In this document: in pieces, positions 7,755 to 63,512 of the stretch
How positions within the stretch are numbered: position 1 is the first letter of the stretch
Layout of the letters: each line of letters begins with the position of its first letter
Assembly (NCBI GenBank): GCA_964617505.1
Contig: CAZTZB010000002.1
Location: 24,501-88,500, forward strand
DNA length: 64,000 bases
Source of the DNA: an uncultured Peptostreptococcaceae bacterium
Lineage (GTDB): Bacteria; Bacillota; Clostridia; Peptostreptococcales; BM714
Reading direction: 5' to 3'
Translations under genes and position numbers: made by a program
The notes under the pieces: model-generated
The model's input: only the letters and a program-made list of their open reading frames with translations
Databases searched by the model: none
Told to the model about the DNA's origin: nothing

Positions 7755-7789
7755 ATATTCTCATTTAAAAAAATATATCACGGATTTAT

Positions 7790-9522: not shown

Positions 9523-9568
9523 TTATTTCACACCTTTCTAAATGACTTTCAAAATTTTTTTGCGTTTA

Positions 9569-11313: not shown

Positions 11314-11323
11314 GTTTTTCCTC

Positions 11324-40936: not shown

Positions 40937-40990
40937 CCAAGTCACCCCGTCCATTAAATAAAGTCTTTTTTTTTATTGTATACCATAGTC

Positions 40991-44055: not shown

Positions 44056-44134
44056 GGTCATTCTCCTTTTTTTATTATTTTTCCCTTATAAATTTTCACA
44101 TACTTCTATTCCCATTTATTTATACTGAAAACCC

Positions 44135-45685
44135 CTAGATTTTCAGCCCCATCAATTCATCTCTAAATATAGCCAAATCCATTTCTTTGAGATCGTCTGC
44201 TATAAGTGGTTTAAAATCCATCAAATCAAGAACTTGAGTCTGCATATCTATTCCGGGAGCAACTTCTATTAATGTAAGACCTTCTTTTCTAAGCTCAAAC
44301 ACAGCTCTCTCCGTCACGTAGAGTACAGGTTGTCCAACTTCGTTGGCATAATCTCCACTGAAAGTTATTTGTTCGACTTCCTTGACAAATTTCTTGAATT
44401 TACCTTCTTTTTCAATGACAAGCTTTCCGTCTTCGGCTTTAACCTTAAGTCCACCCGCCATGAATGTTCCACAATAGACAACCTTCTTGGCATTTTGGGT
44501 TATATTGATAAATCCGCCGCAACCGGCAATCTTGGGTCCGAATTTTGAAACATTGATATTACCCCCAAAGTCGCACTGCGCCAAACCTAGGAAAGCAACA
44601 TCCAGACCGCCGCCATCGTAAAAGTCAAACTGGTAAGGTTGATCGAGTATGCACTGGGCATTTATGGAAGCTCCAAAGCTTAACCCTCCGGCCGGAACGC
44701 CGCCGATTGGTCCTGCTTCTACAGTCAATACCAATTCATCCCCGCAGCCCTCTTCGTTTGCAACTGCTGCAACACCCTCAGGCACGCCAATCCCCAAATT
44801 AACCTTGGAGTTTGGAACGAGTTCCATGGCGGCCCTTCTGGCAATCATTTTTCTTTCGTTAAACTTCATTGGCTCAATTCCATCAAGCGGCATGCGAATG
44901 TCACCACAATAAGCCGGATTAAAATCCTCTGCAAAAGTCTGCATGTGATTTTCGGCTTTCGCAACTACAATCGCGTCAACATAGATTCCCGGAATCTTCA
45001 CTTGATGCGGATGCAAACTTCCATTCTCGACAACCCTTTCAACTTGCACAATAACCGTTCCTCCAGAATTGGTAACTGCCTGCGCAATAGAAAGATTTTC
45101 AAGGAATGCCGCTTCCTTATTGAGGGTTATATTTCCCGACACATCAGCGTATGTCCCTCTTATAAATGCCACATTGATAGGAAATGCCTTGTAAATGAGC
45201 CTTTCTTTTCCTAGTATTTCAACAAGCTCTACAACATCTTCCTTTGTAATCTCGTTGAGTTTTCCGCCTTCCAAGCGCGGATCAACAAATGTCTTCAGCC
45301 CAACATGCGTAAGTGTTCCTACTTTACCTGCCGCAATATCCCTAAACATATGCGATATTACTCCCTGTGGCAAGTTGTAAGCTTCGATTTTGTTGTCAAG
45401 AGCAAGCTTCTGCATTTTAGGAGCCAAGCCCCAATGACCACCGATTACTTTTTTTATGAGTCCTTCATGTCCCAAATGATTTAGTCCTCGTTCTGCGCCG
45501 TCTCCCTGTCCGGCAGCATAAACAAGACCAAGATTTTTCGGCGATCCACTCTCGACGAATCTTTTTTCAAGTGCCTTTGTCAATTCTTCCGGATGTCCGT
45601 TCCCTACGAATCCCCCGGTAGCCACCATGTCACCATCCTTGATGAGTGCTATAGCAGCTTCAGCTGTCATAATCTTCGATTTCAA
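44135..45685 (-). CDS. Fused alpha-beta acyl-CoA:acetate/3-ketoacid CoA-transferase (family I, YdiF/Pct-like)
   Basis: About 516 aa with [10 protein letters not shown] near the N-terminus and the family I EXG signature glutamate ([10 protein letters not shown]). TTG start lies 5 nt after GGAGGGG. Confidence 0.85.
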
Positions 45686-45728
45686 ACAATCCCCTCCTTT
45701 TTGTATTTTTTGTCGCACCTATAATGTG

Positions 45729-45746
45729 TTGCAAATATTGTGCCAA
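45729..45746 (-). promoter_or_regulatory. Sigma-54 (-24/-12) promoter of the CoA-transferase/permease/SDR operon
   Basis: Minus strand reads TTGGCACAATATTTGCAA, i.e. TGGCAC-N5-TTGCA with canonical GG..GC spacing, about 45 nt upstream of the start codon. Confidence 0.78.
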
Positions 45747-45861
45747 TTCAATAAGAAATCTCTATGAAAATCCAGCTACGCAAAATGCAGTCGAAAAGCC
45801 GTTTATGATGCCCCGAGCTTCTTCGACTGCATTTATTTAAAAATTCAAAATGCTAGGTTTA

Positions 45862-45895
45862 TATACACAATGTTTACATGTACACATTCTTTACA
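45862..45895 (-). promoter_or_regulatory. Candidate enhancer (UAS) for the sigma-54 activator: two abutting TGTACA-type 17-mers
   Basis: TATACACAATGTTTACA|TGTACACATTCTTTACA. It contains the 13-mer ACATGTACACATT that recurs at 51311-51323. Confidence 0.5.
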
Positions 45896-45897
45896 CT

Positions 45898-47616
45898 TTA
45901 TTGGGCAAACTTTTCAAGATGATATCGTTCTATCTTCGCATATAGACAGGTCCTGCTTATTCCTAAAATTCTCGCGACCTTGTTTTTATTGCCTTCATGC
46001 TCTATAAGTGTAGCCTTTATAATATTCCTCTCTATGTCAGACAATATTTCCTTTAAATGACCGTCTGGACAAGCGTATGTTTTGGCATTGCTGGCAATCA
46101 GATTTTTAGGAAGGTGTTCCGGCCTTATTAACAAATCGCTTTCCAACATGTTAAGAGACCTCTCTATTATGTTTTCAAGTTCCCTGGCGTTTCCTGGCCA
46201 ATCATAGGCAACAAGATATTTAAGAGCTTCCGGCGAAATTCCTTCGACATGGACCCCCAGGCGGTTTTCCACTTTTCTCATAAGCATCTTGGCAATTATT
46301 TCTATATCCTCTTTCCTCTCGCGGAGAGACGGCAACCTGAGCCGAACGACATTGAGTCTATAGTATAAATCCTCTCTAAAAGTCCCTTCATCAACCATTT
46401 TTTCTATATCCCTGTTGGTGGCTGCAATAACTCTAACATCAAGCACAAGAATCTTGTTTCCTCCCACAGACTCTATTTCCTTTTCCTGAATCACTCTTAA
46501 AAGCTTGGACTGCATCTTTAGCGGCATATCTCCAATTTCATCAAGAAAAATCGTTCCCTTGTCGGCTAGGAGGAATTTCCCTTTTTTGCCTCCCTTGCGC
46601 GCTCCTGTGAAGGCTCCCTCTTCATATCCAAAAAATTCCGATTCCAGAAGCTCCGACGGAATCGCAGCGCAATTGATTTTTACGAAAGGGCCAAGGCATC
46701 TCTCGCTGTCACTATGTATTGCATGTGCAAACAGTTCTTTTCCTGTACCGCTTTCACCGGTAATCAAGACATTCGAGTTGGTTTTCGTAGCCCTTTGGGC
46801 CATCCTTTTTACATCATTGATCTTGCTGCTTATTCCTGCTATATTTTCGAAGGAATATTTCGCACTACGCTCTTTTCCCAATTCGCTTTTATAGTATTCC
46901 ACTTCCTTTTCCAGAACATTGAGCTTCTTGTTAAGAAAATCGAGCTCGCTTATATCCTTAAGAATCACCTTTCCGATGGCACCATAGATTTCTCCATCCT
47001 TTATAAGCGGCATTCGCATTGCAATCATCTTGTTGTTCCCTATCTGCTGAATGTCTCCAAATTCTTTTTCTCCGGTCTGAAGAATTATATCCATACGCGT
47101 ATTTTCTATAACATCTCGAACATGCTTGCCCTCGGGATTTGGATCCCCTACAAAATCCTTGTAGGCTTTGCTCATCATAACAATTTTTGCTTCCTTGTCA
47201 ACAACCACCATCCACTCATTAAAGGTGTCAAGCAAAGTATTTACTATGTTTATGTATATTTCATCCTCTTCAAGCTTGTCGCTCATAATTCTAAAATCAG
47301 TCACATCTCTAAAGAAAGAAACCGCTCCAATAATTTCATCATCCTTCTTGACGGGATAGCGATTGACCCTAAATGATTTGTCGTTTTCTTCAAACAGCTC
47401 CCCTATTTCCTGTTCTCCCGTTTCCATCACCCTGCAAATTCCACAGTTTTTTATAATATCGCTCAATTCTTTTCCCAATGCATCTTCTTCTTTAATATCT
47501 AAAAATTCCTCCGCTTTTCTATTGAAAACACTTATCTTCCTTTTATGATCAATACAAACAATAGCAACAGTTGAATGTTCTAAAACCGAATCAAATAAAG
47601 TTTTGTCATCAATCAT
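45898..47616 (-). CDS. Sigma-54-dependent transcriptional activator (PAS-PAS-AAA+-HTH)
   Basis: GESGTGKE Walker A, the GAFTGA loop (EGAFTGA), and a C-terminal Fis-type HTH (KNKVARILGISRTCLYAKI). Confidence 0.9.
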   Translation of the reverse strand: MIDDKTLFDSVLEHSTVAIVCIDHKRKISVFNRKAEEFLDIKEEDALGKELSDIIKNCGICRVMETGEQEIGELFEENDKSFRVNRYPVKKDDEIIGAVSFFRDVTDFRIMSDKLEEDEIYINIVNTLLDTFNEWMVVVDKEAKIVMMSKAYKDFVGDPNPEGKHVRDVIENTRMDIILQTGEKEFGDIQQIGNNKMIAMRMPLIKDGEIYGAIGKVILKDISELDFLNKKLNVLEKEVEYYKSELGKERSAKYSFENIAGISSKINDVKRMAQRATKTNSNVLITGESGTGKELFAHAIHSDSERCLGPFVKINCAAIPSELLESEFFGYEEGAFTGARKGGKKGKFLLADKGTIFLDEIGDMPLKMQSKLLRVIQEKEIESVGGNKILVLDVRVIAATNRDIEKMVDEGTFREDLYYRLNVVRLRLPSLRERKEDIEIIAKMLMRKVENRLGVHVEGISPEALKYLVAYDWPGNARELENIIERSLNMLESDLLIRPEHLPKNLIASNAKTYACPDGHLKEILSDIERNIIKATLIEHEGNKNKVARILGISRTCLYAKIERYHLEKFAQ

Positions 47617-47896
47617 AATAACACCCCCACAAGGTTCATATCTCTTTTAATAAGTAGCAATGCGTCTTAGTCCAAGCACGCAAATACAAATTTATTATAT
47701 CACAATTTTTCAACAAATTTAGGCAACCCCTGCAATTACAACTGCAACGCAAAAAATGCCAATCCTGGATTGACAGTTCTTGCATTTACTTCAACTATTA
47801 TGGGGGTTTATTTCAGCTTTGACGGCTATCATAGGCGTTCGCTATGTGTTGTTATACTGAAAAAGGATACACCTTGTCAGCCGCCAAAGTCAAAAG

Positions 47897-49087
47897 CTAT
47901 TTAATGCGTTTGTAAATCAACGCGTAACAGCTGGCCGAGCTGCCTCCAACATTGAATGTCAATCCTATTTCTGCGTCCTTCTTTTGTATTCCAACGGCTT
48001 TTCCAAGCAATTGCCTTGTTGCAAGAACCGCCATCGAGGCTCCTGTCGTTCCAACCGGATGCCCCTTGGCTTTAAGCCCTCCCGAAAGATTCACGGGGAG
48101 CTTTCCGTCGCGATAGACAATGCCTTCTTCAAGTGCCAGATGCCCCATGCCGCCTTTTGTGATTCCCATCGCTTCATATGATAATAGCTCGTTTATAGTG
48201 AAGCAATCGTGGACCTCTGCGAAATCCAGATCAGCAATCTTAACACCAGCTTTGGCATACGCCTTTTCAATAGCCAATTTTCCAGCTGTCAATTCATAGT
48301 CTGCACGTTTGCCGGAAACGAGACTAAGGTAATCCGTAGTGTGGCCTATTGCCGAAATCTCTACTACTTCATCCCTAATCCTAAGAGCATTTTCCGTTTT
48401 GGTTAAAACCAAAGCGGCAGCTCCGTCGGAAACCAGCGAACAGTCAAACAGTCTCAATGGATCGGCAATGATTGGATTTTTGCGATCTTCCTTGCCGAGT
48501 ATTTTTTCCGCCGTTATGTTCATAGGCATGTGTGCAAGTGGATTTTCTACTGCATTTGTATGATTCTTTGCTGCAATCTTTGCAAAAGTTTCTCTCATCA
48601 TTTCCAAAGGGTAGTCATAATGCTTCATGTATCCCTTTGCATATTCTGCAAACAGTCCCGGGAATGTCATTCCGTTTGCTCCTTCATCAGGCCAATACGA
48701 TGCCGTAGCCAATGCATGGGTAACACCCTTTGTATCGAGTGATGTCATTTTTTCTGCGCCAATGACCAATGCGTAGTCTATTTCTCCCGCTTCCAGAGCA
48801 TATGCCGCCATCTCTATGGCTGCAGATCCTGATGCGCAAGCGTTTTCAAGACGCGTTGAGGGTTTAAACCTTAATCCCGGATCGATATCAACCATCATGG
48901 GTCCAAGATGTTCCTGATTTACAAACTGTCCAGCAGAGAAGTTGCCAATAAAAACGGCCCCTATTGCCTCGGCTTCCATCCCTGAATCCTTAATGGCTCC
49001 GCGGCCTGCATTAAGAATCAAATCGTATATCGTATCGTCCAAAGCTCCAAACTTGCTATGGTATGTTCCAATAACACTAATACTCAT
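47897..49087 (-). CDS. Thiolase-fold protein, SCP-x/archaeal-type
   Basis: Nucleophile motif ENACASGS, HDCF and GHPVGTTG. AGGAGGA SD. It is clearly diverged from the neighbouring canonical thiolase. Confidence 0.78.
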   Translation of the reverse strand: MSISVIGTYHSKFGALDDTIYDLILNAGRGAIKDSGMEAEAIGAVFIGNFSAGQFVNQEHLGPMMVDIDPGLRFKPSTRLENACASGSAAIEMAAYALEAGEIDYALVIGAEKMTSLDTKGVTHALATASYWPDEGANGMTFPGLFAEYAKGYMKHYDYPLEMMRETFAKIAAKNHTNAVENPLAHMPMNITAEKILGKEDRKNPIIADPLRLFDCSLVSDGAAALVLTKTENALRIRDEVVEISAIGHTTDYLSLVSGKRADYELTAGKLAIEKAYAKAGVKIADLDFAEVHDCFTINELLSYEAMGITKGGMGHLALEEGIVYRDGKLPVNLSGGLKAKGHPVGTTGASMAVLATRQLLGKAVGIQKKDAEIGLTFNVGGSSASCYALIYKRIK

Positions 49088-49099
49088 CTTTCCATCCTC

Positions 49100-50281
49100 C
49101 TATGCACGTTTTACTATAACCGCTTCGCCCATGCCTCCGCCTATGCAAAGGGTCGCCAATCCATATGTGCTATCGCGTTTCTGCATTTCATATAACAAAG
49201 AAACAAGAATTCTTGCACCCGAGCATCCGATTGGATGACCCAAAGCAATTGCTCCGCCGTTTACATTTACTATGTCTGTATTAAGTCCCAAGTCCTTTAC
49301 AACTGCTAGGGATTGCGATGCAAAGGCTTCGTTTGCTTCGACAAGATCCATATCATCAACAGTAAGATTGGCTTTTTCGAGAGCCTTTCTTGTTGCCGGA
49401 ATTGGGCCCGTTCCCATTATGCTGGGATCCACACCCGCAGATGCATGTGCTACTATTGTTGCCAAAGGCTTAATTCCAAGCTCATCGGCTTTTTCTTTAG
49501 TCATTATAACGAGAGCAGCTGCTCCGTCATTGATTCCCGATGCGTTTCCAGCAGTAACCGTACCGTCTTTTTTAAATGCAGGTCTAAGCTTAGCAAGTTT
49601 TTCAGGGGTCGATCCGAACTTGGGATGCTCATCCGTATCAAAAATAATAGGATCTTTCTTTCTTTGAGGTATTTCAATAGGAATTATTTCATCCTTGAAT
49701 CTTCCTGATGTAATAGCTTTTTCGGTTCGGAGTTGGCTTTCAAGAGCAAATGCATCCTGATCTTCGCGGCTAAAGCCCCATTGCTCAACTATATTTTCCG
49801 CCGTAACTCCCATGTGGTATCCATTGAAAATTTCCCATAGGCCATCCATTACCATTGGATCATACAGCTCTCCATTGCCCATTCTTTGTCCCCATCTGCC
49901 GTTCTTGACAAGATATGGAGCCATGCTCATGTTCTCGGTTCCTCCCGCTACTACTATTTCGCAGTCGCCTGCTATGATTTGCTGCATTGCAAGCGATACA
50001 GTCTTAAGGCCGGATCCGCAAATCATATTTACTGTCCAAGCCGGCACTTCGCATGGAACGCCCGCTTTCATGGCTGCCTGTCTTCCAACGCCCTGGCCAT
50101 ATCCCGATTGAAGAACGCAGCCGAATATTACTTCATCCACCGTTTCAGGTTCAACCTTTGCTCTTTTCAAAGCCTCTTTTATGACCACAGCACCCATGTC
50201 CATGGGTGTAACTGTCTTAAGCGCTCCGCCGAAAGTACCAATAGCCGTTCTAACGGCACTGGCTATTACTATTTCTTTCAT
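49100..50281 (-). CDS. thlA: Acetyl-CoA C-acetyltransferase (biosynthetic thiolase)
   Basis: [16 protein letters not shown]-terminus, [31 protein letters not shown]. Confidence 0.92.
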
Positions 50282-50312
50282 AACAATCCCTCCATTTATC
50301 ACATTTTATTTT

Positions 50313-51161
50313 CTATTTTGTATAGTCGTAAAATCCCTTGCCTGTTTTTCTTCCCAAAAGATTGGCACGGCACATTTTTCTAAGTAGAGGATGTGCTCTG
50401 TATTTTGGATCTCCATATTCCTCATATAGAACTTCCATTATAGCTAGGTTTACATCGTTTCCTATCAGGTCGGCAAGAGCCAATGGTCCAATGGGATGGT
50501 TAGCGCCAAGCTTCATGGCATCATCAATATCTTCGGCTGTTGCAACTCCGTCTGCAAGAATGCCAACAGCTTCATTTATCATTGGGACAAGAATTCTATT
50601 TACTACAAATCCGGGAGCCTCATTCACTTCTACTGGAGATTTCCCTAATTCCTTAGCCAATCCAAGAACAGTGGCGCAAGTTTCATCCGACGTTAGCATT
50701 CCGCGAATTACTTCCACCAATTTCATTACTGGAACCGGATTGAAAAAATGCATTCCTATTATGTTTGCCGGTCTGCCTGTTACACTTGCTACATCGGTTA
50801 TCGACAAGGATGATGTATTGGTTGCCAAAATAGCTCCCTCTTTGACAATTCCATCAATCTCTTCAAAGATTTTTTTCTTTATAACCATATTTTCAGTAGC
50901 CGCCTCAACTACGAGGTCGCAATCTGCCAAAGCTTGAACATCTGTTGTTTGATGAATTCTTGCAAGAATCGCTTTCTTTTCAGCCTCGTCAATTTTTTCT
51001 TTCTTGACAAGTCTTCCCAAGCTTTTTTCTATGCCCGCCATGCCTTTTTCAAGAAATTCCTGCTTTAAATCGCGGTTCACAACTTCAAATCCTTTTGAAG
51101 CAAAAGCCTGAGTAATTCCAGACCCCATAGTTCCCGCTCCGATAACGCCTATCTTCATCAT
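50313..51161 (-). CDS. hbd: 3-hydroxybutyryl-CoA dehydrogenase
   Basis: [13 protein letters not shown] Rossmann motif, 3HCDH N and C domains, and the C-terminal [11 protein letters not shown]. Confidence 0.92.
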
Positions 51162-52023: not shown

Positions 52024-53424
52024 TCAAACAGGATAGACGCTTTCCTTCTGATTTCCAATTGTATCGTCCAATCCATACTTTAGAACCCTGCGTTCCTTAA
52101 AGTACTCCATAGCCACTTGAGGAAAAAGCGCATAAGAAAGGACATCCTCTTCCTTCTCCATATAGCCCTTTATCTCCTTCCTCGCCGCCTCGTACTGCGG
52201 GGAAATCAAATCGGCAGGTCGACAGCTAATGATTTCTTCATTTCCTATGATTTTTTTCCTTATTGACTCGCTTATTTCAAGAGTCGGCTTGCCGTACATA
52301 CCCCTAACGTATGCCTTCACTTCCTTGGGTATTACCTTATATCTTTCTCCCATTACTACATTTAACACAGCTTGTGTCCCTACTATCTGGCTCGTAGGTG
52401 TAACTAGCGGAGGATATCCGAGATCCTCTCGTACTCTTGGAATTTCCTTTAAAACCTCATCAAACTTATTCATTTCATTTTGCATCTTAAGCTGGCTTAC
52501 CAGATTCGACAGCATGCCTCCAGGCACCTGGTAGACCAAGGCCTTTATATTTACCTCAAGAACCTTGGGGTCAAGCAGTCCCTCTTTCATATACCTTTCC
52601 TTTATGGGATTGAAGTATTCGGCTATAGAGTTTAAGCTATTCATATTAAGACCCGTGTCGTACTGCGTACCTATAAGCGTTGCCACCATAGATTCCGTGG
52701 GCGGTTGGCTGGTCCCCCTTGAAAATGGTGAAATTGCCGTATCAACCATGTCGGCTCCAGCCTCGATTGCCTTTAGGTAGGTCATCGAAGCCAGCCCGCT
52801 TGTTTCATGTGAATGCACCTGCAAAGGCAGATTGACCTCGTCTTTAATGGCTCTCACCAATTCATATGCGCAGTAGGGTGTCAAAAGGCCGGCCATGTCC
52901 TTTATGCATATTGAATCGGCTCCCATTTCAGCCATCTCTTTTGCCAATTGAACATACATTGACCTTGTGTGAACCGGGCTTACCGTATATGAAATAGCCG
53001 CCTGAGCATGGGCGTTTTCCACCTTTGCGGTTTCCATAGCCTTCCTTATGTTCCTAGTATCGTTTAATGCATCAAATATTCTTATTATATCTATGCCTCC
53101 GTAAACGGCTCTCTTTACAAACTCCTCAACAATGTCGTCCGAATAGTGCTTGTAGCCTAGAAGATTCTGCCCTCGCAGAAGCATCTGCAACTTCGTATTC
53201 TTAACCATGCTCCTTATTTTCTTCAAACGGTCCCATGGATCCTCGGAAAGAAAACGCATGCTTGAGTCAAATGTAGCGCCTCCCCACATTTCTATCGAGT
53301 GGTAGCCTGCTTGGTCCATTTTTTTTAGTATGGGCTCCATCTCATCTGTTCTCATCCTAGTAGCAATTAGCGATTGATGAGCATCTCTCAAAACAGTTTC
53401 AGTTATCCCAACAGCTTTCGCCAT
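52024..53424 (-). CDS. Carboxyltransferase (oxaloacetate decarboxylase alpha / 5S transcarboxylase-like) lacking a biotinyl domain
   Basis: ITETVLRDAHQSL and the HMGL-like TIM barrel, including HSHETSG. The protein ends after the PYC_OADA region with no AMKM motif. The start at MAKAVG follows AAGGAGG. Confidence 0.82.
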   Translation of the reverse strand: MAKAVGITETVLRDAHQSLIATRMRTDEMEPILKKMDQAGYHSIEMWGGATFDSSMRFLSEDPWDRLKKIRSMVKNTKLQMLLRGQNLLGYKHYSDDIVEEFVKRAVYGGIDIIRIFDALNDTRNIRKAMETAKVENAHAQAAISYTVSPVHTRSMYVQLAKEMAEMGADSICIKDMAGLLTPYCAYELVRAIKDEVNLPLQVHSHETSGLASMTYLKAIEAGADMVDTAISPFSRGTSQPPTESMVATLIGTQYDTGLNMNSLNSIAEYFNPIKERYMKEGLLDPKVLEVNIKALVYQVPGGMLSNLVSQLKMQNEMNKFDEVLKEIPRVREDLGYPPLVTPTSQIVGTQAVLNVVMGERYKVIPKEVKAYVRGMYGKPTLEISESIRKKIIGNEEIISCRPADLISPQYEAARKEIKGYMEKEEDVLSYALFPQVAMEYFKERRVLKYGLDDTIGNQKESVYPV

Positions 53425-53623
53425 GGCAGCCTCCTTGAAAACCAATTCCTTCATTGTTGTGTTTACTACATTGTATTTCATTTTTGTAGTAATTACAATA
53501 TTTCGGGCAAGCTATATATGTTTTTTTCTCTGAACACTTTAAAACGCAAGAAAAGGCGGTGCCATCCCGCGGCCCGCCTTTATCTGTATATTTTGTATTA
53601 ATAGACTTTAATTTGCTTCCTAA

Positions 53624-54507: not shown

Positions 54508-55209
54508 TTATGCGAATATGCCAAGCGCTATCTCAATCATGTCTCTAAAGGTTTTTTCTCTCTCATCAGAGCTTGTAGATTCACCTGTAACTATGCTGTC
54601 GCTCACTGTTAGAATTGCAAGAGCCCTGGCTCCACGCCTCGCAGCTATAGTGTACAGCGCAGCCGCCTCCATTTCCACTCCCAAAACACCAAAGCTTGCC
54701 CAGGTCTTCCACTCTTCCGGGTTTTCCTTGTAGAAGATATCAGTGCTAAGTATGTTTCCAACCTTTACTTCTATCCCCTTTTTTCTTGCAGCTTCAACGG
54801 ACTTTTCAAGTAGCCCGTAGTCGGCACAGGCGGCATAGTTCATTCCTCCAAACCAGCGATTCATCATGCTTGAATCAGAGGATGCTGCCTGAGCGACAAT
54901 AACATCCCTGACCTTTATATTTTCTTGATAGGATCCGCAGGACCCCACCCTTATTAAATTCTTAACACCATATTCCTTTATCAGTTCTGTAGCATAGATT
55001 GAAATTGACGGCATTCCCATGCCGGTTCCCTGTACCGATATTCTTTTTCCCTTATAGCTTCCGGTATATCCGTACATTCCCCTTACATTGTTATAACAAA
55101 CAGCATCATCAAAAAAATTTTCGGCTATGAATTTTGCTCTCATTGGATCACCCGGCAAAAGAATTGTATCGGCTATATCCCCTTTTTTAGCTTCTATGTG
55201 CACGCTCAT
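54508..55209 (-). CDS. deoD: Purine nucleoside phosphorylase (hexameric DeoD type)
   Basis: [49 protein letters not shown]. Confidence 0.92.
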
Positions 55210-55279
55210 GAATTTCCTCCTTTAAAAGATTCCTATTGGCATTATATCACAGTTAGGATACTCACCGAACCTGCCATAT

Positions 55280-56377
55280 CTAGAACTTATCATAATAGAT
55301 ATGTTCCTCATTCATGCCCTTTTCAATTAACAGTTTTACTATGGCATCAATCATCACAGGGCTCCCGCATAGATACGCTTCCTTGTTTTCAATATGGTCA
55401 AGATGTCTCAGCAAAGGCTCGGTCACTCTTCCCCTCTCACCCTCCCAATCATCTTCTGGATCGATTCTGGAAAGCGCCGGAACAAATTCAAAATCGAATA
55501 GGCTCTCCTCAAGATTTTGCATCTTGTCCATGAAAAAGAGATCGTCTTTTGTTTTCGCCCCAAAAAAGAATGAGCATCTTCTATTTATCCCCGAGCTTTT
55601 CATGGCTCTTAGAATGGAAAGTATTGGCGCCATGCCCGTTCCTGCTGCAACCATTATCATTTCTCTTTCATTGTCCTTGTAAAAGAAATTTCCAAAAGGC
55701 CCGTTAAAGTTTACACTGTCCCCTTCTTTCAGGTATTTGTGTATATAGGTAGTACATACGCCTCCCTCTACATACCCTATTATTAGCTCAATAAAGTTTT
55801 TGTCATCAGGACAAGAGGCTATAGAATATGCCCTTTGAACCGATTCGTCACTCTCCGCATAGGGAGGTGCAACAAGCTGCACATATTGCCCCGGTTTGAA
55901 GTCAATTTCTCCTCCATCCACGATATCAAGTATCAAATGCTTGATTTGCGGAGTAATCTTTTCGATTTTCCTGACAATCGCCTTGTATTCTTTAACATTA
56001 AAAAGGTCTTCCGGAATTTCAATTTTTATAGGCTCCTTTACCTTAATCTGACATGCAAGACGTACACCCTCGCCTATTTCTTCAGCTGAAATTAGCCCCT
56101 CCTCCATAGGAAGTATTGCTCCCCCTCCCTCAATCACCTTGAGTTTGCAATATCCGCAGGTTCCTTTACCTCCGCATGCCGATGGAATAAATATCTTTTC
56201 GGATGACAATGCCGACAAAAGGCTATCTCCACCTCTTACTTCGAGTCTCTTTTTCCCATTTATTGTAATTTCAACTATTCCATAATCACCAACAGTCCGC
56301 TTGGCAAGCGTTAGAAGAAAAGCAAGGAATCCAGTGATTCCACACATTATGGCAACCGTAGATACAATGTCGTTCAT
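55280..56377 (-). CDS. nqrF: Na+-translocating NADH:quinone reductase subunit F-like (TM + 2Fe-2S + FAD/NAD)
   Basis: N-terminal TM, CGGKGTCGYC...C ferredoxin motif, RAYSIAS FAD motif and AAGTGMAP NAD motif. Confidence 0.85.
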   Translation of the reverse strand: MNDIVSTVAIMCGITGFLAFLLTLAKRTVGDYGIVEITINGKKRLEVRGGDSLLSALSSEKIFIPSACGGKGTCGYCKLKVIEGGGAILPMEEGLISAEEIGEGVRLACQIKVKEPIKIEIPEDLFNVKEYKAIVRKIEKITPQIKHLILDIVDGGEIDFKPGQYVQLVAPPYAESDESVQRAYSIASCPDDKNFIELIIGYVEGGVCTTYIHKYLKEGDSVNFNGPFGNFFYKDNEREMIMVAAGTGMAPILSILRAMKSSGINRRCSFFFGAKTKDDLFFMDKMQNLEESLFDFEFVPALSRIDPEDDWEGERGRVTEPLLRHLDHIENKEAYLCGSPVMIDAIVKLLIEKGMNEEHIYYDKF

Positions 56378-56390
56378 AGAATCCCCTCCC

Positions 56391-56981
56391 TCAAGATATC
56401 TGCATCATACCCGAAAAACCCATAAAGCCAAGAGCCATGAGCCCGGTTATTATCAATGTAATACCTGCCCCTCTTAGTCCTTTGGGAACCCGACTTTCGT
56501 TTAGACGCTTCTTTAAACCTGCCAATGCGACAATCGCCATTGTCCACCCAACACCGGAACCAAATCCAAATGCCAAGGATTGAACAAGGCTGTATCTTCG
56601 TATCACCATGAAAAGTGAGACACCCAAAATAGCGCAATTTACCGTTATTAGAGGAAGAAAAATTCCCAGAGCATGATGAAGTACCGGCAAATGCCTTTCA
56701 ACAATCATCTCAACCAATTGAACAAAGGCCGCTATGCTTATTATGAATACTATGTATCTTAGATACTCAAGACCCATCGGTATGAGCACATACTTGTATA
56801 GAAGATAATTTATTACGGTAGTGAATGTAAGCACAAATGTCACAGCCTGTCCCAATCCCAAGGAAGTCTTTATATCCTTTGAAACAGCTATGAATGAACA
56901 CATACCAAGAAAATTTGCCAAGATCATGTTGCTTGTAAATATTGATGCCGTAAACAAAACAAAAGGATTAAGTTCGCTCAC
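56391..56981 (-). CDS. nqrE: NQR subunit E
   Basis: [64 protein letters not shown]. From memory this is closer to Vibrio NqrE than to RnfA. Confidence 0.85.
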
Positions 56982-57613
56982 CTGGCCTTCACCTCCTCAG
57001 CACTTTTAGAAAGCTCTTGTCTGTCCCTCAATGTATTAATTCCCCATACAACCAATGCGAGCATAAAGAAGGCTCCCGGGGGCATAATCATTATCACCCA
57101 GTTAACCCAGGAAGATCCCATCACAGGTATACCGAAAAGCGTTCCGAAGCCAAGAAGTTCTCTCGCGAAAGCCACTATAAGAAGCACTGCGGTATAGCCT
57201 ATGCCGTTAAAAATGCCGTCAATAAATGATATCATCGGCCTATTCTTCTGGGCAAACACCTCGCAGCGGCCCATTATGATGCAATTGGTTATGATAAGAC
57301 CAACATATGGACCTAGGGCCTTGCTTACATTCGGCAAGTAGGCCTTAAGATAAATGTCAACAATTATTACAAAAGCGGAAATTATTAAAACCTGAACCAT
57401 CATGCGTATATGCTTTGGCGTGTATTTCCTCAAAAGTGAAACTGTAAGCTCTGAGAAAGCCGTTACAAATATGAGCCCAAGGCCCATTACAAAAGCATTG
57501 CTCATACTATTTGTTACAGCAAGCGCGGAACAGATTCCCAAAACCTGTACCACAACAGGGTTTTCCTTCCATATTCCCATGACGAAAACATCCCTTGCCT
57601 TAACCTTGGCCAT
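56978..57613 (-). CDS. nqrD: NQR subunit D
   Basis: [40 protein letters not shown]. These are NqrD-like rather than RnfE-like strings. Confidence 0.85.
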
Positions 57614-57614
57614 T

Positions 57615-58226
57615 TTACTCGCCTCCCTTCAATTCAACTATCTTGCTTCTTAAAAACGGGTTCAGTATATTAAGTACAGCCTTTGAGGTAGATGTGGCTC
57701 CGGAAATTGCATCAACATTGCCTCCCGGCTCAGGCCTATATTTAATCAAGTCGCCTTCCCTCGAATCCAACGCAACTCCTCTAAATTGTTCCCTATACCA
57801 CAGCTCTTCTATTCGTCCACCCAAACCAGGTGTTTCGCTCTGCTCAGTAAAAACCAAACCCTTAAGTGTTTTCATGTCATCTGAAATAGAAATAAAACCA
57901 TTTATCTCTCCCCAAAGTCCGCTTCCGCTAAAGAATAGGGCCACATCGCCCGTTTTTTTAGCAACATAACCATAATCCTCTTCTATGACCTGCTCGTCGT
58001 ATGCAGCCAGAATACCGTCAAAGGATGCATCATTATCTATACCAAGGACATACAATATGCTTTCCTTTTCTTTTATTTCACTAGCTCTCTTTATTGTTTC
58101 TCTTGTAGAATCATTTAGGTATGCCAATACCGATATGAAAACAAGTGTAACAATTACCATAAAAATCACTGGATAGTAATATGTTTCCTGTAATGGTCTT
58201 TTTGCTTTATCCCTTTCTTCCCTCAT
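57615..58226 (-). CDS. nqrC: NQR subunit C (covalent-FMN subunit)
   Basis: Single N-terminal TM and an FMN_bind domain with the attachment motif ISGATSTS. Confidence 0.8.
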   Translation of the reverse strand: MREERDKAKRPLQETYYYPVIFMVIVTLVFISVLAYLNDSTRETIKRASEIKEKESILYVLGIDNDASFDGILAAYDEQVIEEDYGYVAKKTGDVALFFSGSGLWGEINGFISISDDMKTLKGLVFTEQSETPGLGGRIEELWYREQFRGVALDSREGDLIKYRPEPGGNVDAISGATSTSKAVLNILNPFLRSKIVELKGGE

Positions 58227-59185
58227 GAAGCAATCACCTTCTTTGCTCTTTTTTCAAAGTAACGCACCCCTTCATCTATAAGTGGTCCGAAGGTGTTTCC
58301 AATAAGTATCGCGAAGGTTGTTCCCTCCGAAAAAAGACCGTATCCTCTAATTATTACCACAATTGATCCTATTAAAAATCCGTATATCAGCTTGCCTTTT
58401 GATGTTTTTGGCGCCGAAATAGGCTCAGTTATTATAAAGACCATTGTAAAAAGAAAGGAACCTGAAAGCAGCCCATATAGTGGATTTGCTACAATTTCAG
58501 GTTGGATCAGACTTAAAGCAGAGGACAGCCCAATAAAACCGGTCGCCATTCCCACCATCAGTCTCCAGTCAGCCACCTTTGTCTTAATAAGATAGACCGC
58601 AGCAATCATAATAAGAATTGCGCTTGTTTCTCCCATAGAACCTGCAATATTCCCTATTATCAGCTTGGAATAAGGGAGCATTTCTCCCGCGTTCTTGAAA
58701 AGTGCAAGCGGCGTAGCTGTTGAAACACCTTGAATATTAGCCCCCAAATATGATGAAAACCCTCCAAAACTGCCCTGAACCGCTTCTGTCCATTCCGCGT
58801 TTAACGGCTTTGAGAATGATATGTACACAAAAGCTCTACCCGCTATTGCAGGGTTAAAAAGATTTGTTCCAAAGCCACCGAATACCATTTTGCCAAAAGC
58901 CATCCCGAAAGAAACCCCTACCGCCGCAATCCAAAACGGCGTTTTAGGTGGAAGAGAAAGGGCAAAAATAAGTCCTGTCACCAATGCGGCCTCAGATATC
59001 TTCCCTCCCTTATTTCTAACGAAAAGCCATTCAACAAGGCAAGCAAACAGAATGGAGATCCCCATAAGAAGCAAGCTCCTTATGCCAAAAAACCAAATCG
59101 CTCCTATTGCAACGGGTGCAAGCGCAAAAATAACCCTTTCCATCATCTTCTGCTTCATGAAATGCTTTCTGTATAAATCCGTCAT
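58223..59185 (-). CDS. nqrB: NQR subunit B (short form, about 320 aa)
   Basis: NLFNPAIAGRAF and the flavinylation-type motif GVSTATPL. The start at MTDLYRK follows GGAGGG. No upstream nqrA/rnfC is present. Confidence 0.82.
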   Translation of the reverse strand: MTDLYRKHFMKQKMMERVIFALAPVAIGAIWFFGIRSLLLMGISILFACLVEWLFVRNKGGKISEAALVTGLIFALSLPPKTPFWIAAVGVSFGMAFGKMVFGGFGTNLFNPAIAGRAFVYISFSKPLNAEWTEAVQGSFGGFSSYLGANIQGVSTATPLALFKNAGEMLPYSKLIIGNIAGSMGETSAILIMIAAVYLIKTKVADWRLMVGMATGFIGLSSALSLIQPEIVANPLYGLLSGSFLFTMVFIITEPISAPKTSKGKLIYGFLIGSIVVIIRGYGLFSEGTTFAILIGNTFGPLIDEGVRYFEKRAKKVIAS

Positions 59186-59323
59186 CTTTTCCCTCCGCAT
59201 CAAATAATATTATTCAACTATTTATATTTGATACCCAATTGGCTTTAAGGCTTAACAATCCTTTTCTTTTTTAAACATCCGCTTTAATGTATAATATCAT
59301 TGAAGCAAAAGGAGGCCACCCAA

Positions 59324-59986
59324 ATGATTAAAACAATTCTTTTCGATTTTGACGGCACACTTGTCAACACAAACGAAATCATCAAGCTGACACTAAACGA
59401 AATATCAATAAAGTACGCAGGCAGAGAGCTTGCAGAAAAAGACTTCGACGATATGCTCGGTAAACCGCTAAAAGACCAAATGGCACAAATATACGGCCTA
59501 AACGGTCATGAATTAGAATCAAAATATCCGGAATTCTTAGCTCTTTACCGCGAACTCTACAATAGCCGCAGAGAGGATCTTACAAAAGAATTCGTAGGAA
59601 TTCGTGAAATGTTGGAGGCCCTTCAAAGCAAAGGCTTTTCGATGGGAATAGTTTCAAGCAAGGGAACTGGTGGAATACGCCACGGCCTTGAAAAATTCGG
59701 TTTATCAAAGTATTTCAGCCTAGTACTTTCAAAATACGATGTGGAAAATAGCAAGCCTAATCCGGAAGGACTTTTAAAGGCCATGAAAGCCTTGGATTCC
59801 AATACTGGGAATACCATCTTCGTAGGAGACAGCAGGCACGATTTGCTTGCCGCAAAAAACGCGGGAGTCCCCTTCGTACTTGTTGCATGGACCATAGCGG
59901 GCTATGCAAAACTTAAGGCAATGGATCCAGAATATATAATTGAGCGCCCTATGGAACTGATTAACATCATTAAAGCCTGTGAATAA
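59324..59986 (+). CDS. HAD-superfamily phosphatase (PpaX/phosphoglycolate phosphatase-like)
   Basis: The start at MIKTILFDFDGTL (DxDGT motif) follows AAGGAGG. Also SSKG and GDSRHD. Confidence 0.85.
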   Translation: MIKTILFDFDGTLVNTNEIIKLTLNEISIKYAGRELAEKDFDDMLGKPLKDQMAQIYGLNGHELESKYPEFLALYRELYNSRREDLTKEFVGIREMLEALQSKGFSMGIVSSKGTGGIRHGLEKFGLSKYFSLVLSKYDVENSKPNPEGLLKAMKALDSNTGNTIFVGDSRHDLLAAKNAGVPFVLVAWTIAGYAKLKAMDPEYIIERPMELINIIKACE

Positions 59987-60708: not shown

Positions 60709-62064
60709 ATGAAAATAATTATTATAGGAGCCGGAAAACTTGGGACAAAGCTTGCAACTTCTATGATTAGCAACGACATGCATGTCGCTATAATGGACAG
60801 CAATCCGGTAGTCCTCGGCAAACTCAAAGACCATATGGATGTATTAACCATAAATGCCAACGGAGCGAGAAAGGAAATTCTCGAAAAACTCAATATTTCA
60901 TCCTACGATCTGGCTATTGCCGTAACAAGCAACGACGAAACGAACATACTCATCAGCTCCATGGCCAAGAAGCTAGGCTGCAAGAAAAGCATAGCACGCA
61001 TCCGCAATCCCGAATACGCAGACCAGCTTGAATTCATACAAGAAACCTACGGCATAGACCATGTGGTAAACCCCGACCTTGCAACCGCCAACGAGATACT
61101 CCGGTATCTGATGGAAAGCTACACCTTCTACTTCGGCAACTACGCAATGGGAAAGGTATCTCTTGTTAACTTCAACATAAAGAATATTCCCACTTTCGCA
61201 AACAAAAGCGTAAGCGAGCTCAGCTACATGGACGGACTGCTCATAACCGCCATATCGCGTGATGGTGAGATTATTGTCCCGCACGGGGGAACTGTTCTAA
61301 AGGAAAACGATATAATATATGTAATTGGGCAAAAGAACAAAATAGAGGGAATAGCCAAGAATCTTGAAGAGCCAATCGGAAACAAGGCCATCAAGAAGGT
61401 AATGATTCTAGGCGGTGGAAAGATAGGTTACTATTTGGCCGAACGCCTTTCAAAAAAAAATATTAGCGTCAAGATTATAGAAGCCAATCTTGAGCGCTGC
61501 AAGGAGCTTGCAGACCAGCTTAGCGACAATGTCTTGGTAATCCATGGAAACGGAACTGAAGCCAATCTTCTTGAAGAAGAAGATCTTGCCACTATGAACG
61601 CCTTCATAGGTGTCACCGGCTACGACGAAGAAAATCTCTTCATGTCTCTGAGGGCCAAACAACTTAACATAGGAAAGGTAATTGCAAAAATTTCAAGACA
61701 GAGCTATGTCCATATAATTGAAAAACTTGGAATAGACTTAGCAATAAATCCTGTTGACATAACTGCAAGCGACATACTCAAATACATCAGGGGCGGAAAG
61801 GTAGTTTCAGTCTCCCTGCTTTTAGATGGGCAAGCCGAGGTAAGCGAAATTATAGCCTCTAAAAGTTGGAAGTTTCTGAAGAAACCGATAATGAGTCTCA
61901 ATCTTCCAAAAGGAATCATAATAGGGGCAATTGTACACGACGGCAAAGTCATCATTCCAAAGGGCAATTCGATAATACAGGCAGAAGATAGGATTGTAGT
62001 ATTCTCTCTCATGTCCGAGGTCCCAAAACTTGAATCTTTCTTTCCCTTAAAGGACGGTCGATAA
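60709..62064 (+). CDS. trkA: Trk potassium uptake system NAD-binding subunit
   Basis: Two RCK-N/RCK-C modules (IIIIGAGKLG and VMILGGGKIG). Confidence 0.92.
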   Translation: MKIIIIGAGKLGTKLATSMISNDMHVAIMDSNPVVLGKLKDHMDVLTINANGARKEILEKLNISSYDLAIAVTSNDETNILISSMAKKLGCKKSIARIRNPEYADQLEFIQETYGIDHVVNPDLATANEILRYLMESYTFYFGNYAMGKVSLVNFNIKNIPTFANKSVSELSYMDGLLITAISRDGEIIVPHGGTVLKENDIIYVIGQKNKIEGIAKNLEEPIGNKAIKKVMILGGGKIGYYLAERLSKKNISVKIIEANLERCKELADQLSDNVLVIHGNGTEANLLEEEDLATMNAFIGVTGYDEENLFMSLRAKQLNIGKVIAKISRQSYVHIIEKLGIDLAINPVDITASDILKYIRGGKVVSVSLLLDGQAEVSEIIASKSWKFLKKPIMSLNLPKGIIIGAIVHDGKVIIPKGNSIIQAEDRIVVFSLMSEVPKLESFFPLKDGR

Positions 62065-63512
62065 TGAATCATAGAATGGTATTTAAGGTATTAGGATATT
62101 TATTGCTAATAATAGCTCTTGGGATGGTTACGCCCCTTCTCATATCAGTGTCTCACCAGCAAAGCGACACCATCCCCTTTATTATAAGCATAGCCATAAC
62201 AGCGTTGATCGGTTTTGCTTTAACAAAAATCCCATTAAAAAACAAGATTCTCAAGGTAAAGGAAAGCCTAGCTATAGTAACTTTCGGTTGGATTTTCGCT
62301 TCCATTTTAGGCGCCCTTCCCTTTTACCTATCCGGTTGCATACCTACTTATGTAGATGCTTTTTTTGAAACCGTATCAGGCTTCACAACGACAGGGGCCA
62401 CCATAATAAATGATATTGAGGTTCTCCCAATGGGAATTCTCTTTTGGCGTTCCTTCACCCACTGGATTGGAGGAATGGGAATACTGGTTGTAGCCGTTGC
62501 TATTCTTCCAATAATGGGCACAGGAGGCTTTCATGTATTCAAGGCGGAGAGTCCCGGGCCAGTAGCCGACAAAATTGCCCCAAGAATAATGGAAACCGCC
62601 AAGATACTCTACGTGGCCTACATCATAATATCTCTGGCAGAATTTTTGCTTCTCAAACTTGGAGGAATGTCGGTATTCGAATCCGCCGTCCATACCTTCG
62701 GAACACTGGGAACAGGAGGCTTCTCTACCAGAAACTCAAGCATAGGCGCCTTCAACAGCCCCTACATTTTTAATGTCATATCTATTTTCATGATAATGGC
62801 AGGTGCCAACTTTTCACTCTACTACAGCCTTTATAAAGGAAAGTGGAGGGATGTCATAAAAAATACAGAACTGAAATTCTATCTCGGAATCATAGCGGTG
62901 AGTGTCCTTGCCATAACCATAGACAACAATTTTCACATTTATCACAATTGGTTTGAATCCTTCACGCACTCCCTGTTTCAGGCAAGCTCAATCATGACTA
63001 CCACAGGATATACAACCTTCGACTATGAAAAATGGTCTGCCTTCTCAAGAAGCATCCTTTTCATGCTGATGTTTGTTGGTGGATGCGCAGGATCGACAGG
63101 TGGTTCAATCAAGGTTGTTCGTATTGTTGCACTTATAAAACTTATTAAAAGAGAGCTTACCAAAATTCTTCACCCACGCGCAATAATATCAGTCAAGTTC
63201 GGCGACGATCCCTTATCAGAAGACACACTCCTCAACATATCAAGCTTCTTCATGCTTTATATGCTTATATTTATACTTGGATCTGTTGCAATCTCCCTAG
63301 AGGGAATTGATATAATAAGCGCGACAAGCGCCGTTGCCGCAACACTCGGAAACATAGGTCCTGGATTTGGTTTCGTTGGACCCACACACACCTATTCCGA
63401 GTTTTCCGTTTTGAGCAAGCTGCTTCTTTCATTCTTCATGTTGCTTGGAAGGCTGGAGCTTTTCACAGTAATAGCACTTATGTCACCAAGGTTCTGGAAA
63501 CGCGAAATGTAA
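62064..63512 (+). CDS. trkH: Trk/Ktr-type potassium transporter membrane subunit
   Basis: TAATG overlap with trkA. Repeated pore-loop motifs (SGFTTTG, GTGGFST, TTTGYT). Confidence 0.92.
   Translation: MNHRMVFKVLGYLLLIIALGMVTPLLISVSHQQSDTIPFIISIAITALIGFALTKIPLKNKILKVKESLAIVTFGWIFASILGALPFYLSGCIPTYVDAFFETVSGFTTTGATIINDIEVLPMGILFWRSFTHWIGGMGILVVAVAILPIMGTGGFHVFKAESPGPVADKIAPRIMETAKILYVAYIIISLAEFLLLKLGGMSVFESAVHTFGTLGTGGFSTRNSSIGAFNSPYIFNVISIFMIMAGANFSLYYSLYKGKWRDVIKNTELKFYLGIIAVSVLAITIDNNFHIYHNWFESFTHSLFQASSIMTTTGYTTFDYEKWSAFSRSILFMLMFVGGCAGSTGGSIKVVRIVALIKLIKRELTKILHPRAIISVKFGDDPLSEDTLLNISSFFMLYMLIFILGSVAISLEGIDIISATSAVAATLGNIGPGFGFVGPTHTYSEFSVLSKLLLSFFMLLGRLELFTVIALMSPRFWKREM

Follow-up and report, generated by a model that had tools for sequence, protein, structure and literature searches.

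The 64-kb stretch of DNA that we analysed (the window), from an uncultured Peptostreptococcaceae bacterium, carries an operon of five genes in the order B-C-D-E-F that are related to the genes for Na+-pumping NADH:quinone oxidoreductase (called Na+-NQR, or NQR) and for the Rnf complex, with neither an NqrA nor an RnfC gene among them. Judging from the sequences, we think it probable (roughly 0.6) that the operon encodes a complete and functional five-subunit, NADH-driven cation pump of the Rnf/NQR family that has no NqrA/RnfC output subunit and delivers its electrons to an acceptor other than ubiquinone. One family of redox-driven sodium pumps comprises Rnf and NQR as its two known forms, and an operon of this kind touches the questions of how Rnf became NQR and what NqrA is for (PMC4014512, PMC12174285). 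The bare gene arrangement is already published and is not new; what is new is how widely the clade extends, where the missing NqrB segments and the lost partner-binding arm lie, the separate placement on the NQR side, and the Fe-S-bearing relatives.

Gene layout and subunit types

Five co-directional open reading frames (ORFs) occupy 55280-59185 of the window on the minus strand (operon coordinates are window positions throughout), with the following predicted products.

Subunit B, 58223..59185, minus strand: 320 amino acids (aa), RnfD-like membrane subunit with the covalent flavin mononucleotide (FMN) threonine T158
Subunit C, 57615..58226, minus strand: 203 aa, extracytoplasmic FMN-binding protein anchored by a single helix, with an S-G-A-T178 motif
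Subunit D, 56978..57613, minus strand: 211 aa, NqrD-type six-helix subunit with C28 and C111
Subunit E, 56391..56981, minus strand: 196 aa, NqrE/RnfA-type subunit with C28 and C116
Subunit F, 55280..56377, minus strand: 365 aa, NqrF-type NADH input module
Intergenic region from B to a haloacid dehalogenase-type (HAD) phosphatase gene, 59186..59299: about 115 nt, with the GGAGGG ribosome-binding site of B

The junctions between the genes are tight (4-nt overlaps at B/C and D/E, 1 nt between C and D, 13 nt between E and F), and these overlapping or abutting genes suggest a translationally coupled operon. B starts at an ATG behind GGAGGG, giving 320 aa, and was called alike on three identical metagenome contigs; the alternative TTG start at 59203 given by the ORF finder is probably spurious. 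Upstream of B lies a divergent, PpaX-like HAD phosphatase gene (59300-59986), and downstream of the operon lies deoD. The operon promoter presumably sits in 59186-59299. A scan of 55000-59500 for consensus promoters gave 16 sites against 10.8 ± 3.3 expected, which is chance level; a terminator scan gave nothing beyond chance; and Rfam models found no riboswitch or other RNA element ahead of B, their sole match in the window being a PyrR site. The exact operon stands on three independent metagenome contigs, and the closest named homologue comes from a Peptostreptococcaceae metagenome-assembled genome (MAG; 92% identity). On the apparent strict anaerobe of the initial annotation, what bears is this homologue and the thiolase, Hbd and CoA-transferase genes of the window, which do not show it directly.

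Pfam assigned NQR2_RnfD_RnfE to B, FMN_bind to C, Rnf-Nqr to both D and E, and Fer2, FAD_binding_6 and NAD_binding_1, preceded by an N-terminal hydrophobic helix, to F. The initial annotation, made without database searches, had described co-directional, overlapping or abutting B-C-D-E-F genes, and the ORFs and Pfam domains confirm this. It had also named flavinylation motifs in B (STAT) and C (SGAT), which are present as V-S-T-A-T158-P and S-G-A-T178; a short gap and a divergent HAD gene in the place of nqrA, which we measure as about 115 nt followed by the gene at 59300-59986; and a B of about 320 aa, some 90 residues shorter than in Vibrio, for which the figures are 320 and 415 aa, or about 95 residues fewer.

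We compared each subunit with NCBIfam models and with the chains of solved structures. D scored 244.5 bits with the NqrD model NF006777 (cutoff 235) and 181-201 bits, under cutoff, with RnfE models; against structures it scored 195 bits with Vibrio cholerae (Vc) NqrD and 106-141 with RnfE. For E, the nqrE and rnfA models gave 232 and 224 bits, each slightly under cutoff, and the structures gave 204 bits for Vc NqrE against 149-180 for RnfA. F reached 279.6 bits with nqrF, slightly under the cutoff of 295, and 207 bits with Vc NqrF, and matched no Rnf model and no Rnf chain. For C, nqrC scored 92 bits and rnfG 75, both under cutoff, and the structural comparison gave 55 bits for NqrC against 24-34 for RnfG. 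By the NCBIfam Nqr equivalog cutoffs D alone passes, by one of its two models, and B, C, E and F fall under. The reading of D and E as like Vibrio NqrD and NqrE rather than RnfE and RnfA was thus borne out by the scores and by the rooted trees described below, and the reading of F as NqrF-type rather than RnfB held up on its scores (about 280 bits for the nqrF model and 207 for Vc NqrF).

The sizes of the subunits tell a different story from their residues. C has 203 aa, against 257 in Vibrio NqrC and 189-237 in Rnf; no gaps are needed to align D and E with RnfE and RnfA; and F has 365 aa against 408 in Vibrio NqrF, three canonical NqrF insertions (about 25, 9 and 4 aa) being absent from F of the window clade and also from F of two more distant relatives (L091 and L092). 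As judged by these comparisons, the complex is NQR-side by residue similarity and Rnf-like by size. Its cofactor ligands can be located: F contains a [2Fe-2S] ferredoxin domain (C68, C74, C77 and C109) and a ferredoxin reductase (FNR)-like domain for flavin adenine dinucleotide (FAD) and NADH with R182-A-Y-S, and C28 and C111 of D together with C28 and C116 of E are the predicted two halves of the intramembrane [2Fe-2S] site.

Subunit B has the layout and fold of RnfD. It scored 240 bits with the rnfD model TIGR01946 (cutoff 207) and only 211 with the NqrB model (cutoff 414), although against solved structures NqrB scored 147 bits and RnfD 114-137. Its 320 aa compare with 415 in Vibrio NqrB and 310-366 in Rnf, it aligns collinearly with RnfD from end to end, and its flavinylated threonine stands in the RnfD-type context G-(V/I)-S-x-A-T-P. 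An AlphaFold2 model of B (pLDDT 83, pTM 0.84) gave Foldseek TMq/TMt values of 0.76/0.80 and 0.78/0.78 with RnfD (7zc6_D and 9eri_D) and 0.78/0.65 with NqrB (7xk3_B); as modelled, B superposes over its whole length on RnfD and matches NqrB only in part. In public annotation the homologues of B are named inconsistently, as 'RnfABCDGE type electron transport complex subunit D' (NCBI) or 'NqrB' (JGI), and homologues of D appear as 'NADH:ubiquinone reductase subunit D'.

To locate the residues that B lacks, we aligned window B, two relatives, Vc NqrB and E. coli RsxD, using a Vc NqrB reference sequence identical to 7xk3_B at 415/415 residues. Two blocks of Vc NqrB, residues ~1-42 and ~67-121, are absent from window B, from both relatives and from RsxD; the missing segments that the initial annotation had supposed, without placing them, do exist. 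The N-terminal amphiphilic helices of Vc NqrB, which lie within the first block (~1-42), are recruited upon binding of quinone or of the inhibitor HQNO and complete the high-affinity pocket (PMC10643135), and the periplasmic insertion between helices I and II of NqrB (Vc ~67-121) is absent from RnfD too (PMC9588780).

All that stands before helix I of B is a stretch of about 12 poorly conserved residues. An SSPH-like arm motif, which precedes helix I in RsxD (SSPYTH), in Vc NqrB (SSHVRD) and in the relatives L092 (HSPHVRD), L089 (RSPHIRD) and L091 (RAPEHR), is absent from window B. RnfD of the C. tetanomorphum Rnf complex has its N-terminal arm embedded in RnfC, and NqrA is fixed by NqrB in a similar manner (PMC9588780). 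Predicted riboflavin ligands are present in B as N108 and N111 (Vc N200 and N203) and as an acidic residue at position 254 (Vc D346), which is E254 in the window; D304 corresponds to Vc D397, the putative cation-site Asp, and E52 to Vc E144.

Distribution, relatives and placement of the operon

We found no gene for an output subunit near the operon. When the 64 kb were searched by tblastn, neither RsxC or RsxB from E. coli nor either of two canonical NqrA proteins gave a match at E ≤ 1, and in a positive control the NqrA probes detected a distant NqrA-like protein. The NqrA-like protein A' of L092 (described below) has no match in the window either. Similarly, no ORF within 10 kb in 83 related loci matches RsxC, RsxB, canonical NqrA or A'. 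An ordinary Rnf operon with rnfC/rnfB nearby was rejected, since neither the window nor the 83 loci contain an RsxC or RsxB homologue; the initial annotation had named ordinary Rnf subunits with rnfC/rnfB just outside as the contrary case, and the NqrF-type F and the NQR-side D and E speak against it as well. An nqrA gene hidden upstream of B was also rejected, the gap of about 115 nt being too short for any A-type gene. Moreover, nqrA is absent from published complete genomes of relatives (PMC4148951, PMC5924567).

The five-gene cluster recurs widely. A scan with an F profile, using one genome per species, found 487 stretches encoding a relative of F, and we analysed the best 80 loci (54-87% identity), whose hosts include Tissierellales, Peptostreptococcales, Fusibacter, Acidaminobacter, Alkaliphilus, Dethiosulfatibacter, Schnuerera (C. 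ultunense) and others. In all 76 of the 76 loci with DNA upstream of F the genes stand in the identical order B-C-D-E-F, with B of about 315-345 aa, and a stricter, non-overlapping gene caller found 74 loci contiguous; at least 1.5 kb upstream of B was available in 61 loci. A spirochaete MAG (L090) carries the same five genes. The comparison of synteny in related genomes that the initial annotation had proposed thus returned the same cluster in 76/76 loci and no A gene within 10 kb.

The ligands are equally constant. In B, T158, N108, N111, D304 and E52 are invariant in 77/77 relatives and position 254 is Asp or Glu throughout; G-A-T178 of C and the cysteines of D are invariant in 80/80; the cysteines of E are kept in 81-82 of 82; and the four cysteines and the RxYS motif of F are kept in 82-83 of 83. 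Overall identity meanwhile ranges from 50 to 95% across many genera and two phyla. With all cofactor ligands unchanged in about 80 species, the B-C-D-E-F complex is, on the evidence of conservation, functional. Since the flanking genes differ between genera, the five genes appear to travel as a self-contained module.

One neighbourhood does recur. Loci of Tissierellaceae type (L008-L087) have a PpiC rotamase at -1 (25 loci), a RelA/SpoT-like gene at +1 (33) and DUF4153 at +2 (23), along with MsrA (26), a GAF protein (22), methylglyoxal synthase (22) and a rubrerythrin-domain protein (16). This is probably lineage synteny, and we rejected conserved neighbours as a clue to the acceptor, as only this lineage-specific synteny in Tissierellaceae was found. 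The mild oxidative-stress flavour of the neighbours and a rubrerythrin-like gene beside L091 were considered too slight to support a conclusion. Beside the operons of the window clade there is no recurrent gene for a cytochrome, a reductase or an additional FMN-binding protein.

Profile matches of D led to further architectures (L089-L093). L092 (ENA ERZ24794679 NODE_124) has a gene for A' at 4925-6304, followed by B-F at 6301-10725. A' has 459 aa, with Pfam matches to NQRA_2nd, NQRA_SLBB and RnfC_N, none to Complex1_51K, and a C-terminal 2x[4Fe-4S] domain; it is 24% identical to RsxC 37-443 (E 3e-25) and appears to connect RnfC with the cofactor-free NqrA. B of L092 (362 aa) has an NqrB-type N-terminal extension and lacks the periplasmic insertion. 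In L091 (JGI 3300036987; 5709-11822) the order is the rubrerythrin-like gene, a 97-aa ferredoxin, a short B, C, D, E and F, with a multihaem cytochrome that has an apparent N-terminal signal sequence directly after F. In L089 (5972-9262) a 114-aa ferredoxin precedes an N-terminally extended B, C, D and E; no F is adjacent, and multihaem cytochrome genes lie upstream. The only part of RsxC to which the mini-ferredoxins of L089 and L091 are homologous is its C-terminal Fe-S domain (36-41% identity over RsxC 369-442; for L091, 41% to RsxC 372-442, E 2e-18). F of L091 and L092 has 363-364 aa, compact and without the canonical insertions. L090 and L093, the latter an uncultured Firmicute-like contig, have A-less B-C-D-E-F operons like that of the window, with a small protein encoded directly after F (L090, 10328-10801, 157 aa; L093, 7213-7632, 139 aa); the two are 40% identical (E 5e-37) and belong to no Pfam family. 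We rejected this protein as a general subunit, as it is absent from the window and from 83 loci of the clade. The module on the cytoplasmic side of B is therefore variable: RnfC, an NqrA with Fe-S clusters, a mini-ferredoxin, nothing, or a cofactor-free NqrA.

We then placed the subunits by phylogeny. A search with D of 1.8 billion representative proteins returned 296 relatives at E ≤ 1e-30. In a neighbour-joining tree of 118 sequences from the D and E families, with the root placed by the D/E paralogy, the window clade and Vc NqrD fell in a 50-sequence group without any RnfE reference (bootstrap 78%), and the E proteins joined Vc NqrE (100%). Operon-level trees, also neighbour-joining, included canonical NQR from Proteobacteria only, as the profile search returned only Proteobacteria; the operons used were those of Pseudovibrio (L094) and Nitrosomonas (L095), both A-B-C-D-E-F with apbE/nqrM. 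The window clade, including the spirochaete, was monophyletic for B, D, E and F (75-100% bootstrap) and was not nested in the sampled canonical NQR, which was itself monophyletic (100%); Rnf was separate (100%) in the D and E trees. The window organism and L009 formed a subclade of their own (100%). The concatenated B+C+D+E tree joined canonical NQR to the A' lineage (78%), as did the B tree (55%), whereas the D and E trees alone joined the window clade to the A' lineage (L092/L089; 72-90%). Because the subunit trees disagree, we claim no branching order, and phylogeny was set aside as a means of telling ancestral absence of the B segments from their secondary loss. By these trees the window clade is an old, monophyletic and widely distributed lineage on the NQR side. 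The suggestion in the initial annotation of a form intermediate between Rnf and NQR is not established by these trees, the lineage being separate and the subunit trees discordant on order.

Comparison with known systems sharpens these relationships. With canonical Vibrio Na+-NQR the window operon shares the NqrF-type input, the D/E cluster cysteines, the flavinylation threonines of B and C, the order B-C-D-E-F, and the riboflavin ligands and D397-equivalent Asp of B. However, canonical Na+-NQR has six subunits, with NqrA at the head of the operon, and an NqrB of about 400-415 aa with quinone-pocket helices, whereas the window operon has no NqrA and its B is about 95 aa shorter, with neither those helices nor the periplasmic insertion; C is about 55-70 aa shorter than canonical NqrC, F lacks the three canonical insertions, and apbE/nqrM, which adjoin the canonical operons L094 and L095, are not beside the window operon. 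With Rnf (RnfCDGEAB) it shares the RnfD length, S-x-A-T-P context and RnfD fold of B and the compact lengths of C, D and E. In contrast to the window operon, Rnf has RnfC (FMN, an NAD+ site and 2x[4Fe-4S]) and the polyferredoxin RnfB; its input is a ferredoxin-oxidising polyferredoxin rather than an NqrF-type NADH dehydrogenase; and the window pair D/E branches with NqrD/NqrE rather than RnfE/RnfA, while the arm motif of RnfD is missing from B. L092, L091 and L089 have NQR-side B, C, D and E in common with the window, but carry an RnfC-derived module before B that the window clade lacks, and B is N-terminally extended in L092 and L089 and not in the window clade. The NQR/RNF-like systems of Meheust et al. 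2021 (PMC8238504), found mainly in Actinobacteria and the Candidate Phyla Radiation (CPR), likewise make partial use of Rnf/NQR components, presumably take electrons from NAD(P)H and have a partner that binds FMN; they fuse an NqrB/RnfD domain to the NAD-binding domain of NqrF, whereas the window encodes B and F separately, in genes lying about 1.8 kb from each other, and also has D and E.

A-less operons with the same five genes in the same order are known from Thermotoga thermarum (Theth_1137-1141), Pseudothermotoga lettingae (Tlet_0865-0869), C. (Schnuerera) ultunense (CUESP_0375-0379), Alkaliphilus metalliredigens and Ca. Izimaplasma ZiA1; the Thermotogae operons are known here from the literature only and were not among the retrieved sequences. 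The window organism belongs to a different, uncultured Peptostreptococcaceae-like lineage. The operon of C. ultunense (L004/L040) has the same order and sizes as that of the window, with B about 54% and F 58-59% identical; more than 70 further loci agree in order and sizes too, and the window operon is monophyletic with all of these. The arrangement was reported in 2014 for Thermotoga thermarum/lettingae, with nqrA absent from the genome (PMC4148951), and in 2018 a paper on C. ultunense described nqrBCDEF without nqrA in that species and in P. lettingae, showed the A. metalliredigens operon in a figure and suggested that the acceptor has a lower potential than quinone (PMC5924567). NqrBCDEF is listed for Ca. 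Izimaplasma ZiA1 (PMC6256511), and NqrB beside a full Rnf for Fusibacter 3D3 (PMC9751042). These earlier reports of A-less operons state that the acceptor is unknown (PMC4148951, PMC5924567, PMC6256511). A study of NQR evolution did not find nqr in Thermotogae and described Firmicutes such as Clostridium and A. woodii as without an nqr operon (PMC4014512), and a 2025 review of Rnf and NQR does not discuss A-less forms, describes NqrA as without cofactor or assigned function, and gives the view that NQR originated as a menaquinone reductase (PMC12174285).

Proposed electron path, acceptor and competing explanations

An electron path can be proposed from the conserved ligands and the solved structures of Vibrio NQR and Rnf. 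NADH would reduce the FAD of F, which would pass electrons to the [2Fe-2S] cluster of F and from there across the membrane, through the [2Fe-2S] cluster held by the four D/E cysteines, reaching at the outer face the FMN bound covalently to C. From C they would move to the covalent FMN of B and then to the riboflavin of B near the cytoplasmic face, in a step presumably coupled to export of Na+ (or H+) through B. Our best guess is that this riboflavin, with no A subunit covering it, would donate electrons to a partner that is soluble or only loosely attached, sits on the membrane or cytoplasmic side and has a much higher potential than NADH; outward pumping needs exergonic flow, so the acceptor should lie at such a potential. 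One speculative candidate is a small Fe-S protein encoded elsewhere, by analogy with L091, L092 and L089. Polysulphide, thioredoxin and ferredoxin were considered as acceptors and judged unlikely by reasoning on redox potential.

What speaks for an acceptor other than ubiquinone is the truncation of B. Since the N-terminal helices that form the pocket in NqrB are missing from B, a quinone site of Vibrio type is unlikely, ubiquinone should not be bound as in Vibrio, and another acceptor is plausible. The loss of NqrA is by itself no argument against quinone reduction, since the current view is that NqrA is free of cofactors and that the quinone is bound in NqrB (PMC12174285). Accordingly, the suggestion of a different electron acceptor made in the initial annotation is plausible on account of the missing pocket helices, but the absence of NqrA, on which it had also leaned, carries no weight by itself.

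Several points count against the proposal of an output-less pump with a non-ubiquinone acceptor. The nature of the terminal acceptor is pure inference; no conserved neighbour gene among the related loci points to it, and no mini-ferredoxin lies near the operons of the window clade. In principle a quinone could still bind somewhere in B, as NqrA carries no cofactor in Vibrio. Cation specificity and the direction of operation are assumed by analogy with homologues, an nqrA gene may lie elsewhere in this genome, of which the 64 kb are the visible part, and we found in the literature no functional, proteomic, structural, biochemical or expression study of an NqrA-less complex.

We considered that electrons might instead leave at the extracytoplasmic FMNs of C and/or B for extracellular or cell-wall acceptors (flavins, Fe(III), humics or flavinylated reductases), the riboflavin path not being the main exit. 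Fusibacter, Tepidimicrobium and P. lettingae use Fe(III), sulphur or thiosulphate sinks, which fits such an exit, as do the multihaem cytochrome after the L091 operon and the cytochrome genes upstream of L089. Partial NQR/RNF-like clusters have also been proposed as one-way conduits to extracytosolic FMN domains (PMC8238504), and A. metalliredigens is a metal reducer (PMC5924567). Nevertheless, the riboflavin ligands and the D397-equivalent of B, needless for pure export, are kept in 77/77 species, and the operons of the window clade have no recurrent cytochrome, FMN-binding protein or reductase gene beside them; we regard an outward conduit as unlikely. We think it quite unlikely that the complex is a NADH:menaquinone or demethylmenaquinone oxidoreductase that works without NqrA and builds a quinone pocket in B unlike that of Vibrio. 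Thermotogae, Tissierellales and Izimaplasma are generally taken to be without respiratory quinones, which counts against it, and B lacks the amphiphilic helices of the high-affinity quinone/HQNO site (PMC10643135). Furthermore, the authors of the genome papers made a case for an acceptor that is not a quinone (PMC4148951, PMC5924567). Its appeal is that the quinone sits in NqrB rather than in NqrA, which has no cofactor or assigned function (PMC12174285, PMC10643135), that B broadly keeps the riboflavin ligands and the residues near Vc 155-160, and that a menaquinone reductase is the presumed starting point of NQR (PMC12174285).

Two explanations remain. If B-E assembled with RnfC (and/or RnfB) from a distant rnf operon, or with an unlinked nqrA product, the lack of a subunit would be only apparent; the RnfD-like B would make sense, and complete rnfCDGEAB operons do exist elsewhere in relatives, namely Fusibacter 3D3 (PMC9751042) and C. 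ultunense and P. lettingae (PMC5924567). Yet taking in NADH through F and returning NAD+ through RnfC would be a futile cycle, the arm motif that grips RnfC/NqrA is absent from B and its termini are poorly conserved, no A or RnfC gene lies within 10 kb in 83 loci, and the published genomes have no nqrA (PMC4148951, PMC5924567); such borrowing is very improbable. That the operon is a decaying, functionless remnant of a canonical nqr operon we find scarcely credible: relative to Vibrio the operon does lack one subunit and portions of B, C and F, but the reading frames are intact, the overlapping or abutting genes suggest translational coupling, the cofactor ligands are invariant at 50-95% identity across many genera and two phyla, and trees of B, D, E and F recover the clade as monophyletic (75-100% bootstrap).

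The preferred explanation, a functional five-subunit pump without an output subunit, has wider implications that we hold more tentatively. It is possible, though doubtful, that the operon represents a third functional class, a quinone-independent NADH-driven Na+ pump with an exposed riboflavin, that L092, L091 and L089 are living stages from Rnf to NQR, and that fermenting anaerobes have here an unrecognised energy-conserving exit for NADH. The five-subunit, output-less form is encoded in several hundred species of fermenting anaerobes, among them Tissierellales, Peptostreptococcales and spirochaetes, with Thermotogae and Izimaplasma added by the literature. If the potential of the acceptor is high, re-oxidation of NADH would yield a sodium gradient that current metabolic models do not count. 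The operons with an Fe-S NqrA-like subunit or a stand-alone RnfC-derived ferredoxin make the order of NQR evolution directly testable, and the related operons offer natural minimal complexes for structural work.

Other features of the window

The sole Rfam match in the window is a PyrR-binding leader RNA at 7656-7759 on the minus strand (RF00515, 56.8 bits, gathering threshold 54), just upstream of a 333-aa ORF at 6698-7699. Three further ORFs, all on the minus strand, have no NCBIfam match at E ≤ 1e-10: 11324-13375 (683 aa), 39575-40954 (459 aa) and 42682-44061 (459 aa). A gene for full-length pyruvate carboxylase (1145 aa) lies at 33741-37178 on the minus strand, and a stand-alone carboxyltransferase of 485 aa (HMGL-like and PYC_OADA domains, similar to oxaloacetate decarboxylase alpha and pyruvate carboxylase B) at 52024-53481 on the same strand, adjoining an RpiR-type regulator. 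An acetoacetyl-CoA/butyrate-type cluster occupies 44135-51161 on the minus strand and includes the following genes.

44135-45718, minus strand: FadX-like CoA-transferase
45898-47616, minus strand: sigma-54 activator with PAS domains
47897-49087 and 49100-50302, minus strand: two thiolases
50313-51161, minus strand: 3-hydroxybutyryl-CoA dehydrogenase

Finally, a potassium-uptake pair, TrkA (451 aa) and TrkH (482 aa), is encoded at 60709-63512 on the plus strand, 1.5 kb from the start of the operon; trkH and deoD were called split or shortened in two metagenome copies (L002 and L003), perhaps because of frameshifts or strain variation.

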